Source: a virus (Duplodnaviria > Heunggongvirae > Uroviricota > Caudoviricetes). From it: a DNA stretch of 43,579 nt. Shown one piece after another: positions 2,835 through 17,400 of this stretch (positions within the stretch are counted from its first letter, which is position 1; each line of letters begins with the position of its first letter). The stretch lies in IMG/VR virus record IMGVR_UViG_2671181030_000006; one strand, given 5' to 3'. The position numbers and the translations under genes are program-made. Under the pieces are notes generated by a model. It was not told the origin of the DNA, did not search any database, and saw nothing but the letters and a program-made list of their open reading frames with translations.

Positions 2835-5669
2835 TTATGCCTGAGTACGCAGCGCTTCAAGGCGGCGCAGGTCGAAGTCGTTCAGTTCGTCGGTGTAGTC
2901 AGCAGTGATTGGCGCTGGCCATTCACCTGTGTCGAATCCGGTTGCGATATTGCGCATCGCTTTGCGGTACTCGAGCATACCCAGCTCCAGTAGTTCAGCG
3001 GATGCCTCGATGATGGCGATCCAGTGGTAGTTCTCGTCTTTGTTGACGAAAATCCAGAAGAACTGATCCAGCGCTGCGGTTTCGCAGTACATAGCCGCGC
3101 TCAGGTGATAATCACGTTCAATAATTTCCCGGTGTAGCCTGGCGCGCAGGCTTTCCTGCTTAACATTCCACATGCTGATGGTTTTCAGGTCAGCACCGAT
3201 ACGCACGCCGTCTAGGTCGATCTCAAGGTCAGGGCGCACACGAACTTCCAGTCCCGTCTCCTCGTCAAAGCCAAAGTAGCTCACCTCAACGGCGCGGCTC
3301 GGGTGGGTTAGCAGCATGCCTGCGGTCGGGTGTGCCAGCAGGGCCGACTGGATGGCCTGGGCGGTCACCAGCTGCTGGCGCGTCACCAGAATCTTGTCGC
3401 CCGGATTTTCTCGCCAGGCGTCCAGCAGCTCGTCGGCGAATACGGCATCGGGTTTAACCGACTTAATCGCTTGGATCATTTCCGCTTTGCTGCCGGACAC
3501 CTTAAGCGGTGCCGGCTTCTGGGCTTCCTGCTCCACCAGGTCAGGGTTGATGATTGCCAGCTGTTCAAGCAGCGCATCGCGGCTGCCGCTGGTTTTAACC
3601 GGCGCGGGCAGGGTGGCGTTGTACTCTTTGATGCAGGCTTTCATAGCTGCTGCGGTCTGCTTCTGGTCTGGCTCGATGCGCTGGTACTCTGCCGGCAAAG
3701 CCATATAGCTCTGGGCCGTTTCCTCCAGGCTGGCGCCCAGCGGCAGCTGCGCGGGCAGGGTGGCGTTGTGCTCTTCAAGCAGCGCTTTGATATCGTCAGT
3801 GCTCAGCAGTGCCGGCAGGGTGGCGTTGTGCGAATCGATGAACTCGCGCAGGGTGGCGGTGGTAGTAAAAGCATCTTCCGGGATCTCCGGCTCCACGCTG
3901 AACTCTGCCTCAAGGTTTTCAGGCTGCAGCGCCAGGGCGTGAACCAGATTACCCATGTCCAGCACCTTGGAAGGGGCCCGCGGGATAGTTTTGGCGACGT
4001 GGCGCGCGTTGAAGTACATCAGGCTGACCCTGGCATCCTTCACCTGGGTGGAACTGATCCCGTTCGCCGCGTGATAAACGTCATTCGGCACGCCTTCATA
4101 GCGGCCCGGTTCGAAGTACGCCGGGTATTCCGGGACCGGTTGTGAAGGTTGCTCTTCCGGCGCGCTCGCTTTCTCCTCTGATGCTTCGGTGGTCAATTCC
4201 TGCGTAGTGGCGTTCGCCAGCTCCGGCGCCGCGGCGGAGAGCACCTCAGCCGGGTTCAGGGTATCTGTTTGCGGATCAGTTGCATCAGCGCTTTCGCCTG
4301 GTGGTACCGTATCAACAGTTTTGTCTTTCTCTGGCTGAGTCGCTTCCATCTGCACATCGCTGGTGGTCTCCACTACGGTTTCCGGTTTTTCTGCTTCATT
4401 TGAGGGAATATTGATGACCGGGTTAGTATTTCCACTCAACAGGCCATTGATGGAGAACATGCCACCGCCGAGGTTCGCGACCTGCGGCTGAGCTGTTGGT
4501 TCCTCAACCTCTACTTGCGTCTGAACCGCGGACGCGCGCAGGGGCATCAGTTCAGTTGCGGCGTTAAACTCAGCGGTCATGGTCTGGTTAACGAACTCCA
4601 GATGGGCCGCCGGCGTACGATGAATGTTTTCCGGTGCGATCCGTACCAGGTTGAAAATGGCCGCACGGTTTACCGACAGAACGCCAGGCTGGTTACGCAG
4701 AAGGGCGCTCCATGATTTCCAGGGCTCTTCTTTTTTCGCCACGATTTCTTTGGCGCGACGGTGAATGCTGCCCGGGATCTCAAGGTGGTTGAAATCCATC
4801 GGCAGCAGGGCACAGGCGATCTCCAGATCCAGTGTGTCCAGCGTGTGATGCGCACCTTCGCCGCGGTCGGTGACATATCCACCATCGGCATTGGTACCTG
4901 CGTCAGTGCGCTGAACACTACTGATGTGATTACCGGCAGCCCATTCACGCGCCAGGATGCCACGGTCAATGTAATCAGTCGCCGCCCACATTCTGGTGAA
5001 ACGGAGTACCAGCGCGAGTTCGTGACGCTTGTCCTGGCTGAACACTTTGCGAATGGCATCGGTGTAGCGCCACAGGTCTTTGGTGTCGTAACCCTTCACT
5101 TCCGGGCAGTTCTCAGCAGCTAACAGCAAGTTCTGGACGTAACTGTTATCAGTGTCCATCTCCAGCGCGCCGATAGCTTCGTACTCTTCGCGGGTTACGT
5201 GGTGGCGCAGTTCGTCGGCGGTGAACTGGGAAAGCAGTTGCTTACGAAACGGCATCTGCACTACCGGGTAGAGGGTTGAGTCGTCGTCGTGTTCGTCCAG
5301 CGTGATGCCAGCGGTTTCTGGCAGCGTTGACTCAGTAGTTATGTGACTATCAACGGTCTGAGCCGTTTTCTCGTCAGAGTTTTCAGCTGTGACTTTTGGC
5401 AGCCAGGTGCGGTCATCGTTCTGCAGTTCGTAGCGTTCGCACCAGGTGTAATCCACTGCGCCTTCTTCCGGCAGGTCGTCATATACCGGGAAATCGGTGC
5501 GGATTGGTTTGGCATAATCTTTACCGCGGCCAGTTTCTTCAATTCCGGCTTCTTCCAGTGCCACATCGAGTTGGAGATTGGCGCGCGCTACACTTTTCGC
5601 AGTGAACCAAATCACTGCATCTTTCTTGCCAGACTTCTGACTGGCTTTTATCAGATGGAAAAATTCCAT
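2835..5669 (-). CDS. recE: RecE-like exodeoxyribonuclease VIII (C-terminal PD-(D/E)xK-type nuclease), with internal tandem repeats
   Basis: Seen: N-terminal FPVYDDLPEEGAVDYTWCERYEL and TDRGEG motifs closely resemble recalled E. coli RecE. Start chosen at ATG 5669 (MEFFHLIKA...) with a GAGGA Shine-Dalgarno upstream; the track ORF extends to 5774. Confidence 0.8.
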   Translation of the reverse strand: MEFFHLIKASQKSGKKDAVIWFTAKSVARANLQLDVALEEAGIEETGRGKDYAKPIRTDFPVYDDLPEEGAVDYTWCERYELQNDDRTWLPKVTAENSDEKTAQTVDSHITTESTLPETAGITLDEHDDDSTLYPVVQMPFRKQLLSQFTADELRHHVTREEYEAIGALEMDTDNSYVQNLLLAAENCPEVKGYDTKDLWRYTDAIRKVFSQDKRHELALVLRFTRMWAATDYIDRGILAREWAAGNHISSVQRTDAGTNADGGYVTDRGEGAHHTLDTLDLEIACALLPMDFNHLEIPGSIHRRAKEIVAKKEEPWKSWSALLRNQPGVLSVNRAAIFNLVRIAPENIHRTPAAHLEFVNQTMTAEFNAATELMPLRASAVQTQVEVEEPTAQPQVANLGGGMFSINGLLSGNTNPVINIPSNEAEKPETVVETTSDVQMEATQPEKDKTVDTVPPGESADATDPQTDTLNPAEVLSAAAPELANATTQELTTEASEEKASAPEEQPSQPVPEYPAYFEPGRYEGVPNDVYHAANGISSTQVKDARVSLMYFNARHVAKTIPRAPSKVLDMGNLVHALALQPENLEAEFSVEPEIPEDAFTTTATLREFIDSHNATLPALLSTDDIKALLEEHNATLPAQLPLGASLEETAQSYMALPAEYQRIEPDQKQTAAAMKACIKEYNATLPAPVKTSGSRDALLEQLAIINPDLVEQEAQKPAPLKVSGSKAEMIQAIKSVKPDAVFADELLDAWRENPGDKILVTRQQLVTAQAIQSALLAHPTAGMLLTHPSRAVEVSYFGFDEETGLEVRVRPDLEIDLDGVRIGADLKTISMWNVKQESLRARLHREIIERDYHLSAAMYCETAALDQFFWIFVNKDENYHWIAIIEASAELLELGMLEYRKAMRNIATGFDTGEWPAPITADYTDELNDFDLRRLEALRTQA
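3600..3865. repeat. Intragenic tandem repeats (about 4 copies of CAGGGTGGCGTTGT on the + strand) inside recE
   Basis: Seen: copies starting near 3609, 3755, 3815 and a degenerate one near 3849; they encode repeated xHNATLPA peptide units in RecE. Confidence 0.75.
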
Positions 5670-5807
5670 GTGAGATCCTCTTTTTTGAGTGTTAGAATCC
5701 CCGGGCCAGAGATAGCGCCCATTGGATGTTTTTTGGTTTGGTATAAATTCCGGTGTAACTTTGGTCGGTGGCACCGGACGTGAATCCCGCCTTGCGCGGG
5801 GTTTTCG

Positions 5808-5969
5808 TTATGCTTCGTGGGCCATCTGGTCGAACGAAGCGCAACGTACTGAACAGTAATCACGTTGCTCGCGTTTCAACTGCGTGCCGTGGATAAAGAG
5901 CAGTTCGTTTTTAACTTCCTTCCCTTGCTTGATCGGCTTGCGGCAGTACGCGCATTTTTTCTCCTGCAT
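5808..5969 (-). CDS. Small zinc-ribbon protein (CxxC...C...C), YdaE-like position upstream of recE
   Basis: Seen: 53-aa ORF MQEKKCAYCRKPIKQ...DYCSVRCASFDQMAHEA, below the 60-aa ORF-track cut-off. Established knowledge: Rac prophage encodes a small zinc-binding protein YdaE near recE. Homology is inferred, not verified. Confidence 0.45.
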   Translation of the reverse strand: MQEKKCAYCRKPIKQGKEVKNELLFIHGTQLKREQRDYCSVRCASFDQMAHEA

Positions 5970-5980
5970 AACTCACTCCG

Positions 5981-6187
5981 TTAATGGCTAAGGCCATGTC
6001 CTAAACCGTTCAGATAAACTTCAACCAGCAAGTCGGTTGTGTAAGTCCGCTCAATCCCACGATGCAGATACAGGCGGCCGCGTTTATTTGCTGATGCTGT
6101 CCAGGTGCTTTCCCGATGCTTAACGAGCATCCCTGGGAGAACGGCGCCGCGGTTAACAGTCTGTGTCCCGTAATGATGACTAACCAT
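5981..6187 (-). CDS. Hypothetical small protein in the kil-like position of the leftward early operon
   Basis: Seen: ORF ending 12 nt before the zinc-ribbon gene start; internal ATG at 6187 chosen over the track start at 6247. Overlapping alternative frames exist, so the call is weak. Confidence 0.3.
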   Translation of the reverse strand: MVSHHYGTQTVNRGAVLPGMLVKHRESTWTASANKRGRLYLHRGIERTYTTDLLVEVYLNGLGHGLSH

Positions 6188-6368
6188 TGAACACCCCCGT
6201 GAAATGCATAATTTCGACAGCCAGGCCAGCCCAGAAAACCACACCAATGGCCAGCGCGATAACCAGTGAGCGAATGCCGTTTCTGCTCATACCGCACCCC
6301 AGCACTGAACGCTTACGAATGCGACCAAAGCCAACAACAGAGCCACCTTCACCTTGAATCTGTTCCAC
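6180..6368 (-). CDS. Possible small membrane peptide, first ORF downstream of OL/PL (36 aa from ATG 6290, or 62 aa from GTG 6368)
   Basis: Seen: hydrophobic single-helix sequence MSRNGIRSLVIALAIGVVFWAGLAVEIMHFTGVFNG. Inference only. Confidence 0.3.
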   Translation of the reverse strand: MEQIQGEGGSVVGFGRIRKRSVLGCGMSRNGIRSLVIALAIGVVFWAGLAVEIMHFTGVFNG

Positions 6369-6475
6369 GCAGGAACCTCATGTTCTCGGATCATCTCTTC
6401 ACCTTTGCCTTATCGCGGCTAACGGGACGTTTTGACTTCACCCCGGCGTTGCCGGTGTTGTTTGGATGAGATGAT

Positions 6476-6545
6476 AATACTCCTGGTATTATTTTATATC
6501 AATACCGCCAGTATTATTATGTTTAATAAAAATACTAAAGGTATG
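6476..6545. promoter_or_regulatory. OL-like operator cluster: three AATAC-N5-GTATT sites at 6476-6490, 6501-6515 and 6531-6545 (third has one mismatch); probable PL region
   Basis: Seen: the same 15-bp dyad motif recurs at OR next to cI. Established knowledge: lambdoid CI binds dyad operators at both OL and OR. Confidence 0.6.
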
Positions 6546-6615
6546 ATTTTAAAGTTAATTTATTTTTGTAAAAAGTGCTGTTATGCTCAAAAAAACATCA
6601 TAAAGGGGTGTTGGC

Positions 6616-6819
6616 ATGTCAAATGAGGATGAGTTTTTCGCAGAGATGCACCCGCAGATAGCGCAGGTCATCGGGATAGCGGTTATGCAACTGCTGGTTG
6701 AGAAGCGCGAGCCCTCAAGAGAGGCGCTGATAGAGATGATTCAGGTGTTGTGGCAGGAAGACCAGGTCGATCTGGCTGTGGAGTTGGCGCTGGACGTGCT
6801 GATGCTGAGGGAAGAGTAG
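6616..6819 (+). CDS. Hypothetical small acidic protein (67 aa)
   Basis: Seen: ORF with AAAGGGG Shine-Dalgarno about 8 nt upstream; lies between the OL cluster and the convergent hairpin terminator. Confidence 0.45.
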   Translation: MSNEDEFFAEMHPQIAQVIGIAVMQLLVEKREPSREALIEMIQVLWQEDQVDLAVELALDVLMLREE

Positions 6820-6825
6820 GGCAGT

Positions 6826-6848
6826 AAAAACCCGGCGCGGTGGCCGGG
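6826..6848 (-). terminator. Intrinsic terminator (tIMM-like) ending the cI-cassette transcript
   Basis: Seen: hairpin CCCGGC-GCGGTG-GCCGGG; on the minus strand it is followed by TTTTT. Confidence 0.5.
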
Positions 6849-6855
6849 TGAGATA

Positions 6856-7788
6856 TTAAAGAACCGATTTAACAAGATGGTTTTTACGGTACAGACCTAT
6901 GCGATCATTGTGAATCTCAGTAGTCTCCACTAAAAGAGAAACAATCTGTCCGACCTTGTGTTTTTTTTGTATTAAATCTAGCATTTCAATCGGATAGGAA
7001 GCCTTTAAATGTTCACCACCAACATCAAGCTCCAGCTTCCCATATTTGGATAGAACGACCAGTTCGCCTGTAACCGTTTCAGTAATGGGAGGGGATGAAA
7101 TGGTTGATGTAAGTCTACTCACCAAGTACTTAATTTTATTGGAGTCAATAGTTGCCACCTTGGTGCCATTACTAAATGGACCGGTCCAACTTGCATCAAA
7201 TGTTAAGTTGTGTTTATCGCATTCCTCTACGATTCTCTTAAGGCTTACAGTGGAATTGTATCCAATTTCAGCGACGTGATTCATGAAGTTGTTGTCGTCA
7301 TCGCTTAACAACAAATCGAATATGCCTTTTACAGCCTTGCTGGGTACTGTTTCTACTAATTCTGCTATTCCTGTAGAGAAGGTGACGCCCAATTTTGTAG
7401 ACCCAGGGGATAAATCAGCCAGCCTGAGGTTTAAGGAGCTTTTCACGTCGTAGGGAACTTTTTTTGAGTCCTTGCCTGAGGCAATTTTGTGTGTTGCTCT
7501 TTGTATTAGCGCTGCAAGATTTGTTGAAATAGCCCCAAGCAGCTCTAAAGGAATAGAGCCAAAGTCAACCTCAGAGCCTTTCAGCCGCAGCTCAAAAAAA
7601 TCGATAAGTGGGTGCCGACTATCTTGCTTTAATTTTTCGGCCTTCAAATCGCTCAGATGAGAATCCATGGAGCGATAAAGAAGCATGTCAGCAAAGGACC
7701 TGGTTTTGTTTTGCTTCATTGCATCGACTTCTTTTTGAATGAAATCAATGCGTTTATCGCAATTTTTAAACATTGATTTATCATTCAT
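6856..7788 (-). CDS. Hypothetical 310-aa protein, distal gene of the AT-rich two-gene cassette at the rex-equivalent locus (candidate defence effector or sensor)
   Basis: Seen: long AT-rich ORF with GAGGA Shine-Dalgarno; start overlaps the upstream gene stop (ATGA). No motif recognised. Confidence 0.7.
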   Translation of the reverse strand: MNDKSMFKNCDKRIDFIQKEVDAMKQNKTRSFADMLLYRSMDSHLSDLKAEKLKQDSRHPLIDFFELRLKGSEVDFGSIPLELLGAISTNLAALIQRATHKIASGKDSKKVPYDVKSSLNLRLADLSPGSTKLGVTFSTGIAELVETVPSKAVKGIFDLLLSDDDNNFMNHVAEIGYNSTVSLKRIVEECDKHNLTFDASWTGPFSNGTKVATIDSNKIKYLVSRLTSTISSPPITETVTGELVVLSKYGKLELDVGGEHLKASYPIEMLDLIQKKHKVGQIVSLLVETTEIHNDRIGLYRKNHLVKSVL

Positions 7789-8264
7789 AAAAAAATCCTC
7801 ACTAACCCTTTCGGGTTTTCACTGCGATCAAAACCAAACCAACCGCGCCAGTAGCTACGCCAGTACTCATAATCATAGTTAGGGTCATCTAAATTCTTCA
7901 TGAGTAGTAGGACATCAATTTTGTAGTTTTGTTTGATGTAGTTTCGGTCAAGCAAATTATCGACGCGGCCCCGAAGCATGACAGGTATTGAGTTTATATT
8001 GCTATAGTCACATACCAACAAAATATCAATATCATCAGGCTCTGGTTTAGACGTGGTGTATGAACCATCAACCCATATTTCTGTAAAACAGCCATATTGA
8101 GCAGATAATTCTCGAATAGATTCGAGTAGCTGTATAAAATTACAGTATAGCATGCCTCGCCTGGATGATGAAGGAAAGCAATCGACACAATACGATTTTA
8201 ATCCAGCTTCATCCATGTCATGGAACCCTGGCTCAAACAGGGGTGGGTAATTAATTTTATCCAT
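7785..8264 (-). CDS. Minimal nucleotidyltransferase-fold protein (GS-x9-DxD motif), proximal gene of the AT-rich cassette
   Basis: Seen: IWVDGSYTTSKPEPDDIDILLVCD matches the Pol-beta-type NTase signature hG[GS]-x9-13-DhDh. ATG 8264 chosen; the track start at 8312 is GTG. Confidence 0.7.
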   Translation of the reverse strand: MDKINYPPLFEPGFHDMDEAGLKSYCVDCFPSSSRRGMLYCNFIQLLESIRELSAQYGCFTEIWVDGSYTTSKPEPDDIDILLVCDYSNINSIPVMLRGRVDNLLDRNYIKQNYKIDVLLLMKNLDDPNYDYEYWRSYWRGWFGFDRSENPKGLVRIFL

Positions 8265-8413
8265 AAAAAACCTTGCTATACATTTGTTTTTTTTTATTAA
8301 AAATCTAACCACCGAAATGGTGACGGCAAGATGTTACATGGGGTTACAATCAGCCAATACACCGCATTAAATAATTTTTTCACCAGCTATGCGCCGACCA
8401 GAACACCTTGCCC

Positions 8414-8526
8414 ATCACCCAAACGTCTCTTCAGGCCACCATAAGCACGATCGCAACAACCGAGAGCAAAGTAACCACGCCTACTATCAGATATTCTCTC
8501 ATCACCCAAACGTCTCTTCAGGCCAC
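8414..8526. repeat. Two perfect 26-bp direct repeats (ATCACCCAAACGTCTCTTCAGGCCAC) at 8414-8439 and 8501-8526
   Basis: Seen directly; located between the cI stop and the NTase gene start. Confidence 0.85.
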
Positions 8527-8574
8527 TGTTAATCTGCTACCCATGCTTCCTGTACGTCCGCGGCATGCTGCTGA

Positions 8575-9285
8575 TCACACAAGTCTCAACTTAGTTTCTA
8601 CAGCCACACCAATGATCCGGCAATTCCCATTGATGGGAACCAATGGCCATTGAGGGTTTAAGCCCTTCAGGTACTTCTGGCCCCCATCAATAATCAGCTT
8701 TTTGAATGTCGCTTCGTTTGATTCGGATAGCTTTGCGATCACAAGGCTGCCATTTACTGGCTCTCGGCCGGTATCAAACAAAACGTAGGTACCCTCTGGT
8801 ATGCTGAGCCCGACCGGGGCAGTCATGGATTCCCCCTCGACCAACAACCAGAACGCATCCCCCTGGATGTGAGCGTCTGATTCTAGCCATAGATCGATAT
8901 CTTTAAGTGCATACGGCTCGCACGCTTCCGACCAATGCCCAGCCTGAATCTTGCTTAATACAGGGTATTTAATGCCTGGGGTGTACTGGCCTGCATACTT
9001 GGCATTCGATGTAGCGGAAGCACTCATTGCAGATATTTCTTTCGCAAGGCTGGGGCTAAAATCAGAGACATCCACCTGGAGGGCTCTGGCAAAAACAGCA
9101 GCCACGGCAGCATTAAGGGCATTCCTGCCATTCAAGTAATGCCCAACGCCCCCCTGAGATATGTCTAGCATGTCAGCTATTGATTGCTGTGTTATCCCAA
9201 GCTCTTTTTTCTTGGCTTCATAGAGGGCTTTCAGCCTTTCTGCGTCAGCGATCTGAGCCGATGTCAGTGTCTTTTTCTTTTCCAT
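8575..9285 (-). CDS. cI: CI-type prophage repressor: N-terminal HTH plus C-terminal LexA-like S24 autopeptidase domain
   Basis: Seen: HTH region (ITQQSIADMLDISQGGVGHYLNG), probable Ala-Gly cleavage site (IQAGHW), Ser (GESMT) and Lys (FKKL) catalytic-type residues. ATG 9285 chosen; the track begins at TTG 9291. Confidence 0.9.
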   Translation of the reverse strand: MEKKKTLTSAQIADAERLKALYEAKKKELGITQQSIADMLDISQGGVGHYLNGRNALNAAVAAVFARALQVDVSDFSPSLAKEISAMSASATSNAKYAGQYTPGIKYPVLSKIQAGHWSEACEPYALKDIDLWLESDAHIQGDAFWLLVEGESMTAPVGLSIPEGTYVLFDTGREPVNGSLVIAKLSESNEATFKKLIIDGGQKYLKGLNPQWPLVPINGNCRIIGVAVETKLRLV

Positions 9286-9296
9286 TTTCAAATAGT

Positions 9297-9358
9297 AATA
9301 CCAATGTTCTTATTTTAAAAATACTAGCGGTATTGCAATGTTTAATACTTGTGGTATT
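9297..9358. promoter_or_regulatory. OR-like operator cluster between cI and cro: AATAC-N5-GTATT at 9320-9334 and 9344-9358 plus a degenerate copy at 9297-9311; probable PRM/PR region
   Basis: Seen: perfect dyad sites 24 bp apart in the divergent cI/cro intergenic region, same motif as at OL. Confidence 0.65.
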
Positions 9359-9389
9359 GTTTACTCATGAGTTGATAGGAGCTAACCAC

Positions 9390-9581
9390 ATGAAAATTTC
9401 TTTAGCTGAATACGTTGACGAAGTTGGACAGGCAAGAGCTGCTGATGCCATCGGCGTTCACCAGACCGCAATTAGTAAAGCTATCCGGGTAGGGCGGAAG
9501 ATTTTCGTTAACACCCTGCCTGATGGAAAAATTAAGGCTGAGGAGATCAAGCCTTTCCCACATAACAGAAATCCTGATTAA
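9390..9581 (+). CDS. cro: Cro-like HTH repressor
   Basis: Seen: 63-aa ORF divergent from cI, Shine-Dalgarno GGAG upstream, HTH-like GVHQTAISKAIR. Inference from position. Confidence 0.7.
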   Translation: MKISLAEYVDEVGQARAADAIGVHQTAISKAIRVGRKIFVNTLPDGKIKAEEIKPFPHNRNPD

Positions 9582-9660
9582 ACAAAGCTGAATTGAGCAG
9601 TCAGCGGGTTCTGACTGAGTAATTCAGCCATTCCAAACACCACCAGAGGAAGTATCACAA

Positions 9661-9882
9661 ATGGAGCGTTCAACGACACGCAACAAAGTGGAGGCTCGCA
9701 GGATAGAAAGCTGGTTACACAGCCAGATAGCTGAACTGGGAACCACGAATATCGCCAAAGTGGCCGGAGTGAATAAGTCGACGGTGAGTCGCTGGCGGGA
9801 AAGTCTGCTGCCGAACATGTCGCTACTGCTGGCCATCCTGATTTCTAACAGGCCGGGAGAGAAAGGTGATTTTGAAGCATGA
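9661..9882 (+). CDS. cII: CII transcriptional activator
   Basis: Seen: RIESWLHSQIAELGTTNIAKVAGVNKSTVSRWRESLLPNMSLLLAIL closely resembles recalled lambda CII. Confidence 0.85.
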   Translation: MERSTTRNKVEARRIESWLHSQIAELGTTNIAKVAGVNKSTVSRWRESLLPNMSLLLAILISNRPGEKGDFEA

Positions 9883-17016: not shown

Positions 17017-17325
17017 TGCCTGCGATCCGGTCAGGGCTCTTGGGTAGAGACGTGCTGCACGACACGTCAAAGCCCTTCCGCGCAGAGCCCTGAACCAGAT
17101 TGAAGTTACTCAGCAATAAGAAAACTGCATGTCATCATTTGCTTATATCTTATTGACCAGAAAATTAACATGTTGTTAATCTATTCGTGTGGTGAATCCC
17201 CCTATGCGGAGGGGCGACCAGTCAAACTTTTTTGTCCAGGTTTGTTTGCGCGGAACTAGTCGGCTGGGGCTGTTCCACCGGGAGGCACCCGGCGCCACCT
17301 CCTTGACGGTATTGTTATTTTTCAT

Positions 17326-17352
17326 GCCTGTTCGTCCGAGCAGGCTTTTTTT
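17326..17352 (+). terminator. Second intrinsic terminator in the Q-to-lysis spacer
   Basis: Seen: GCCTGTTCGTCCGAGCAGGC hairpin followed by TTTTTTT. Confidence 0.5.
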
Positions 17353-17400
17353 GCCCGCATTATCTTCATTGAAAACTGGCAACTCAGAGAATCATCCAAA

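Follow-up and report, generated by a model that had tools for sequence, protein, structure and literature searches.

What is a short palindrome doing at both ends of a phage repressor region, and which protein reads it? The question is raised by DNA of 43,579 nucleotides from a virus of the Caudoviricetes (IMG/VR record IMGVR_UViG_2671181030_000006), the whole of which is called the window here. In it the dyad AATAC-N5-GTATT clusters at two places, on either side of a cI repressor gene and a two-gene cassette, and an earlier note had taken the clusters for the left and right operators (OL and OR) of CI. In this study, we compared the two clusters with those of lambda, phage HK620 and a wide set of relatives. 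Six such dyads very probably constitute the tripartite OL and OR of a lambda-type lysis/lysogeny switch of an HK620-like immunity group, as judged from sequence comparison. The locus has the features of such a switch: cI and cro diverge, three dyads lie at OR, a second cluster sits at a leftward promoter, operators and repressor co-vary, and CI carries the determinants of self-cleavage. The boundaries of the immunity region of the prophage are fixed by this reading, from OL1 at 6476 to OR1 at 9358.

Two clusters of dyads around cI

The six sites are listed with mismatches counted against AATAC-N5-GTATT; the centres of the right-hand sites are measured from the cI start.

OL1, 6476..6490, AATACTCCTGGTATT: perfect dyad, covering the -10 hexamer and the spacer of the candidate leftward promoter PL
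OL2, 6501..6515, AATACCGCCAGTATT: perfect dyad, abutting and overlapping the -35 hexamer of PL
OL3, 6531..6545, AATACTAAAGGTATG: one mismatch
OR3, 9297..9311, AATACCAATGTTCTT: two mismatches, centre at +19
OR2, 9320..9334, AATACTAGCGGTATT: perfect dyad, centre at +42
OR1, 9344..9358, AATACTTGTGGTATT: perfect dyad, centre at +66

A scan of the window returned four perfect dyads, at 6476, 6501, 9320 and 9344, and none elsewhere in it. The coordinates that the earlier note had given for these sites, and for the near-perfect site at 6531, proved exact, and its spacing of 24–30 bp agrees with the start-to-start distances measured here (25 and 30 bp within OL and 24 bp from OR2 to OR1). Its tally of two sites plus one on the left and two on the right has to be revised to three per side: OR3 at 9297–9311, 23 bp from OR2, had been overlooked. 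The natural frame of the sites is 17 bp, as in lambda, and reads (T/A)AATACY-N3-RGTATT.

The enrichment that had been anticipated for the two loci is pronounced. Over 100 dinucleotide shuffles of the window the mean was 0.02 perfect sites and no shuffle contained four; base composition leads to an expectation of 0.039 per window, for which the Poisson P(>=4) is ~9e-8. Sites with up to two mismatches, in contrast, occur outside the two clusters at chance level (15 observed and 12.2 expected in the window). A motif frequent throughout the host genome had been named as a finding that would speak against the idea. In 250 kb of an E. coli chromosome carrying a prophage of the same immunity we found one isolated perfect site, within pyk, so that the dyad cannot be called common in a host genome; base composition predicts 0.22 perfect sites per 250 kb, or about 4.4 per genome. 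A site with one mismatch at 4115, inside recE, was considered as a further operator and taken as chance, there being eight such sites per 250 kb of host DNA.

The right cluster occupies a short intergenic control region from which cI and cro are transcribed divergently.

cI repressor, 8575-9285, minus strand: 236 aa, Pfam HTH_3 and Peptidase_S24
Candidate -10 hexamer (TACTAT) of the repressor promoter PRM, 9297..9292, minus strand: placed by analogy with lambda for a leaderless cI mRNA starting at the A of ATG 9285
Candidate rightward promoter PR, 9333..9360, plus strand: -35 TTGCAA (9333-9338), 16-bp spacer and -10 TATTGT (9355-9360, within OR1), assigned by position
cro, 9390-9581, plus strand: 63 aa, Pfam Cro PF09048 (E 1.3e-23), recognition helix QTAISKAIR
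cII homologue, 9661-9882, plus strand: Phage_CII match, given for context only
OR3 in the 17-bp frame: lambda TATCACCGCAAGGGATA, window TAATACCAATGTTCTTA
OR2 in the 17-bp frame: lambda TAACACCGTGCGTGTTG, window AAATACTAGCGGTATTG
OR1 in the 17-bp frame: lambda TACCTCTGGCGGTGATA, window TAATACTTGTGGTATTG

The OR regions of lambda and the window superimpose in the 17-bp frame, and the centres of OR3, OR2 and OR1 stand at the very offsets from the first base of cI that are annotated for lambda. The best solved relatives of the two regulators are likewise those of lambda, the full-length repressor 3BDN for CI (E 2.8e-53) and lambda Cro for Cro (E 1e-14). The recognition helix of CI is QGGVGHYLNGRN, and its C-terminal domain is homologous to that of lambda along the full length. 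Aligned with lambda CI, the protein retains the Ala-Gly cleavage site and both residues of the Ser/Lys dyad, and the QAG, SMT and FKK columns are invariant; from these residues we infer that the prophage is probably SOS inducible. The candidate PR agrees with the consensus at eight of 12 positions, which is under the threshold of the promoter scan, and its position equals that of the annotated pR of HK620. Inspection of the sequence ahead of ATG 9285 revealed no Shine-Dalgarno sequence, and the cI mRNA is for this reason predicted to be leaderless.

The left cluster is overlaid on a better promoter match, the strongest between 5700 and 10000 (ten of 12 consensus positions).

Candidate PL, 6474..6502, minus strand: -35 TTGATA (6502..6497), 17-bp spacer and -10 TATTAT (6479..6474)
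Immunity-specific OL/PL segment of ~88 bp, 6471..6558: replaced in the heteroimmune Klebsiella phage ST101-KPC2phi6.1
orf67, 6616-6819, plus strand: 67 aa, function unknown, phrog_3946; between OL3 and the cassette and convergent with the latter

PL reads into the minus-strand genes leftward of OL, which comprise a small orf, a Kil homologue, a YdaE-like gene and RecE. A promoter-like site of the opposite orientation, TTTATA-16-TATTAT (6493-6520), overlaps OL2 and faces orf67.

Operators and recognition helices among relatives

The cI/OR/cro part of the window is present in 31 of 5,426 complete E. coli genomes, and one viral contig (L031) encodes identical CI and Cro proteins. The E. coli prophages L001 and L002, with CI 100% and 99.6% identical, possess the same six sites, in which only central bases change. 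Among prophages with identical CI the centre of OL1 reads CTCCTG or CTCCGG and that of OR2 reads TAGCG, TTGCG or TCGCG, and the single mismatch of OL3 is the same in prophages whose CI is identical or 81% identical. Farther away, Serratia phage OS31 (CI 66% identical) also has the AATAC dyad, whereas Cronobacter phage ENT39118, with a CI 65% identical and the helix QSAVAQFLAGKN, has lambda-like operators of the TATCACC type instead.

Viral contigs were scanned for two tandem dyads, which gave at least 120 loci. Among the matches listed, a CI homologue lies beside the motif in 87 of 120 and a Cro homologue in 68. In the 66 loci with a full-length CI (53–100% identical) the sites stand at constant offsets from cI. 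The 64 non-redundant OR regions carry 1.6–2.0 bits of information at the half-site positions and 0.1–0.5 bits at the centre; OR1 is a perfect site in 54 of them, OR2 in 43 and OR3 in none. The motif itself was the criterion by which these viral loci were chosen; of the patterns just given, the offsets and the consistently weak OR3 alone are independent of that choice, and the unbiased comparison is confined to sets seeded with CI.

The CI-seeded set was limited to one genome per species and contained 80 loci. Two or more sites with at most one mismatch were found upstream of cI in 21 of the 25 loci whose CI has the helix QG[AG]VGHY[LM]NGR, as against four of 42 others (Fisher p 8.6e-10). Perfect sites occur in this set only with helices of the type GA[VI]GH[YW][LI]NG and never with unrelated ones; the loci among the 'others' that do have a perfect site all have variants of the helix (HYI, AIG or the Pseudomonas form PGAVGHWLNGK). 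The predicted operator motif tracks the recognition helix of CI, and relatives with QG(A/G)VGHYLNGRN share it. A finer assignment, in which residue 45 (Ser in lambda and ENT39118, Gly here) would switch the specificity for operator positions 3 and 4, was considered and is unsupported. Natural CIs with QSAVGHYLNGRN exist in L159 and L194, which lack perfect AATAC sites, and the idea was rejected because L142 and L140, both with Gly45, have an OR that matches the one of L159 nearly base for base.

Two side observations concern the reach of the motif. In Pseudomonas spp. (L169-L186), where CI is ~42% identical and the helix is PGAVGHWLNGK, 15 of 17 loci have one perfect site directly ahead of cI; the AATAC core therefore extends beyond the Enterobacterales. 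Yersinia massiliensis CCUG 53443 carries two prophages on one contig (L141 and L167) whose CIs share the helix SQGAVGHYLNGRN and AATAC-type operators; the C-terminal domain is lambda-like in one of the two CIs and window-like in the other. The two prophages may cross-regulate each other.

A natural exchange of the operators is provided by the Klebsiella phage ST101-KPC2phi6.1 (MK448231, L212). Window positions 6386-6470 recur in its DNA with 100% identity, and the homology resumes at ~6559 and runs through orf67, but the ~88 bp in between are replaced. This phage has a different cI and cro and, at its own OL and OR, operators of the form AAAACC...GGTTTT; its cI-to-OL slot holds genes annotated as RexA and RexB, with the orf67 homologue retained beside rexB. 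A swap of operators together with cI between homologous flanks is the hallmark of an operator module specific to the immunity type.

These comparisons bear on two other accounts of the dyads. If they were AT-rich palindromes that had arisen by chance in intergenic DNA of high AT content and had no specific binding role, the AT-richness of both regions and the chance frequency of two-mismatch sites elsewhere in the window would be as observed, but four perfect sites would not be, at 0.02–0.04 expected. Chance also fails to explain why the offsets from the cI start are constant in the 64 non-redundant relatives, why half-sites are conserved while centres drift and why the sites are exchanged as a unit with the immunity type. 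This pattern of conservation effectively refutes the account, whose probability we regard as negligible. The dyads might instead be bound by a regulator other than CI and Cro, of host or phage origin, and the motif does occur apart from cI: 33 of the 120 motif-selected viral loci lack a CI homologue in the DNA examined (again among the matches listed), and a 255-kb contig (L043; IMGVR_UViG_3300045988_169358) carries at 1352-1625 ~9.6 tandem copies of a 29-bp unit, each with AATACC-N3-GGTATT. The array precedes a sigma-factor-like gene, and the ~8.9 kb examined contain no CI homologue. Many of the CI-less loci, however, are short or end at the motif. Moreover, the sites of the window lie exactly where lambda CI and Cro have their operators, their presence follows the recognition helix of CI, and a change of cI brings a change of operators, as in ST101-KPC2phi6.1. 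A regulator of another kind is accordingly very improbable. The array of L043 is an unrelated use of the AATAC dyad.

The proposed switch and its enclosed genes

The reading of the six dyads as lambda-type OL and OR leads to the following proposal, modelled on lambda. In the lysogen, CI dimers would occupy OL1/OL2 and OR1/OR2. The bound repressor would silence PL, with the small orf, kil, the ydaE-like gene, recE and what follows, and PR, with cro, cII and the replication genes; the early operons predicted to be silent in the lysogen are thereby named. CI on OR2, whose centre is at -42 relative to the start of cI, would activate a weak and probably leaderless PRM, and transcription of cI from PRM would probably run on through the PDC-M63 pair, which has the same orientation, as transcription from PRM of lambda runs into rexAB. 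At high CI concentrations the weak OR3 and OL3 would mediate negative autoregulation, possibly through OL–OR looping over about 2.87 kb; by analogy, OR3 is the site that would matter for autoregulation of PRM. RecA-stimulated self-cleavage of CI at the Ala-Gly site would induce the prophage, upon which Cro would bind the same sites and turn PRM off. The map of a CI regulon drawn in the earlier note holds in so far as the two clusters have the properties of OL and OR and flank cI; the 'regulon', however, amounts to two early promoters plus PRM. Cooperative binding of dimers, which the note had read from the spacing, is expected here by analogy.

Several points weigh against the proposal. The OL spacings of 25 and 30 bp differ from the 24 and 20 bp of lambda, and cooperativity and looping are for this reason assumptions only. 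PR and PRM are weak matches to the consensus and were assigned by position alone. The comparative set is partly motif-selected, namely in its viral contigs, one peptide seed of the CI-seeded set was the recognition helix itself, and some members of the family (L140-L143) have one site or degenerate sites. Full-text literature searches found no relevant experimental data on operators of the HK620 type. Finally, read-through from cI into the cassette, assumed by analogy with lambda, would have to cross a gap of ~310 bp (from 8575 to ATG 8264) that contains fossil cI ends.

Alternatively, CI and Cro might bind the sites but with a wiring unlike that of lambda: there might be no cooperativity or looping, OL3 might mainly control a rightward promoter of orf67, or the cassette might have its own promoter in place of read-through from PRM. 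The OL2–OL3 spacing (30 bp, and 20 in lambda) and the rightward promoter-like site over OL2 aimed at orf67 fit such an arrangement, as does the observation that the 127 bp ahead of the mechanically called cassette reading frame (8313-8439) move with the cassette in phage mEpX1. In addition, the 933W repressor is described as apparently binding adjacent sites without cooperativity (PMC3317979). On the other side, the OR geometry is the same as that of lambda, down to the -42 position of OR2 relative to cI, and the homology of the C-terminal domain of CI to that of lambda holds throughout. The orf67 gene is kept beside different operators in the heteroimmune Klebsiella phage and so need not depend on the AATAC sites, and no minus-strand consensus match to a promoter of the cassette was found in 8313-8574. 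Wiring of another kind is unlikely on balance, yet it is far from negligible, and lambda-like control of PL, PR and PRM is preferred.

The genes enclosed by the operators lie, as the earlier note had recognized, inside the immunity region, between cI and OL.

Cassette gene 2, 6856-7788, minus strand: 310 aa, PADLOC PDC-M63B (E 7.5e-45), phrog_6603
Cassette gene 1, 7785-8264, minus strand: DUF6932 (Pfam), PADLOC PDC-M63A (E 2.4e-41)
Terminator-like hairpin with a T run, 6830..6849, minus strand: immediately past the 3' end of the cassette
Two fossil lambda-type cI 3' ends (..QWPEETFG*), 8413-8439 and 8500-8526, minus strand: a 27-bp direct repeat

Gene 1 of the cassette likely starts at ATG 8264 (159 aa, following the annotation of mEpX1); the mechanical open reading frame reaches GTG 8312, from which the gap to cI is 262 bp. 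The two genes take the rexAB position, having the orientation of cI, and show no match to Rex in PADLOC or Pfam, where they are PDC-M63A/B and DUF6932 instead. Because the PDC-M63 pair occupies the slot equivalent to rexAB, it is plausibly expressed from the repressor promoter of the lysogen, and the hairpin at 6830-6849 is a candidate end of the cI–cassette transcript, analogous to tIMM. Deletion of PDC-M63AB in its native E. coli host gave no defence phenotype against the phage panel of the study concerned (bioRxiv 10.1101/2024.12.20.629700).

The cassette is 99.6% identical to a pair in the corresponding slot of mEpX1, where the neighbouring cI is a different one. The fossil cI ends sit between the stop of the live cI (8575) and the cassette, and at the copy at 8413-8439 the 99.6% match to mEpX1 ends on the right; the two copies look like scars of successive module exchanges. 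The immunity region and the cassette each occur separately in many complete E. coli genomes, and their combination (5700-9700 at >=80% coverage) was found in none of the complete E. coli genomes in RefSeq. Among relatives with the same operators (L001-L205) the cI-to-OL slot ranges from empty (75–139 bp) to 2.6 kb, with cargo that is unrelated between relatives. The cargo includes the PADLOC candidates PDC-M63, PDC-M66, PDC-M53 and PDC-S25 (SIR2/ThsA-like), hkaS of HK620 and several unknown genes. The slot is a putative hotspot for defence or moron genes at the rex position.

On the left flank, no N-like antiterminator gene was recognized in the PL operon by PHROGs or Pfam, and Rfam gave no match near OL or OR. 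The predicted PL leader (6386-6470) contains a hairpin, CCGGC-AAC-GCCGG (6443-6455), that is also present in ST101-KPC2phi6.1; it was considered for N/nut antitermination and has a 3-nt loop, unlike boxB. The sole Rfam match in the window is the small RNA STnc100 at 17157-17356 on the plus strand (85 bits, with a gathering score of 47).

HK620, lambda and the operator family

The core of the motif is kept by CIs that have diverged to 40–50% identity and by Cros of 50% or less, in many genera of Enterobacterales and in Pseudomonas. It is tempting to regard ATAC-N5-GTAT as the core of an operator 'supergroup' and the cI–OL slot as a repressor-controlled landing pad for diverse candidate defence cassettes, although we hold this to be speculative and rather doubtful. 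If it were true and the repressors cross-bind, immunity would have to be set outside the half-site, by cooperativity specific to the C-terminal domain, by spacer bases or by the spacing of sites; alternatively, cross-immunity and cross-regulation would be wide among otherwise unrelated prophages.

Lambda supplies the plan of the locus. CI is homologous to its lambda counterpart at 44% identity, and Cro is also homologous; both systems have three 17-bp dyads per side and a cI start codon without a Shine-Dalgarno sequence, and the two-gene cassette between cI and OL, in the orientation of cI, is the positional counterpart of rexA/rexB without being Rex. The distance from OL1 to OR1 is 2868 bp in the window and 2407 bp in lambda. 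The half-sites, (T/A)AATACY in the window and TATCACC in lambda, have positions 2, 5 and 6 in common and differ at 3 and 4; the TATCACC half-site that marks lambda immunity is not that of the window.

The closest sequenced phages are HK140, mEpX2 and HK620. The cI of HK620 is shared by HK140, mEpX2, HK630 and several Stx2c phages, and the HK620 record (GenBank AF335538) annotates OR1-3, OL1-3, pR and pL on the AATAC dyad, with operators overlapping pR and pL. Its OR1 (AATACCTGTAGTATT), OR2 (AATACCCTGAGTATT), OL1 (AATACTGTAGGTATT) and OL2 (AATACCCAAGGTATT) are perfect matches, and OL3 and OR3 have one and two mismatches, respectively. HK620 and the window are thus both tripartite with a degenerate O3 on each side, both have a lambda-family Cro, and their CI helices (QGAVGHYLNGRN in HK620 and QGGVGHYLNGRN here) are one residue (G/A) apart. 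The two systems differ in the OR1–OR2 spacing (25 bp in HK620 and 24 bp in the window), in the contents of the cI-to-OL slot (the one small gene hkaS in HK620, orf67 and the PDC-M63 pair here) and on the left side, where HK620 has an N/nut system and the window a kil–recE operon without a recognizable N. CI is 75% and Cro about 50% identical between them, not near-identical as in homoimmune phages, and the window therefore represents a sister allele rather than HK620 immunity proper, with a predicted possibility of cross-immunity with HK620-type phages. Because the dyads were already annotated in HK620, the switch of the window is an ordinary genetic one, and the understanding of lambdoid switches is unchanged; the value of the assignment is practical. 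The operator motif is a known one, the architecture is that of the textbook lambda switch and the CI/Cro pair is a diverged allele of the HK620 group.

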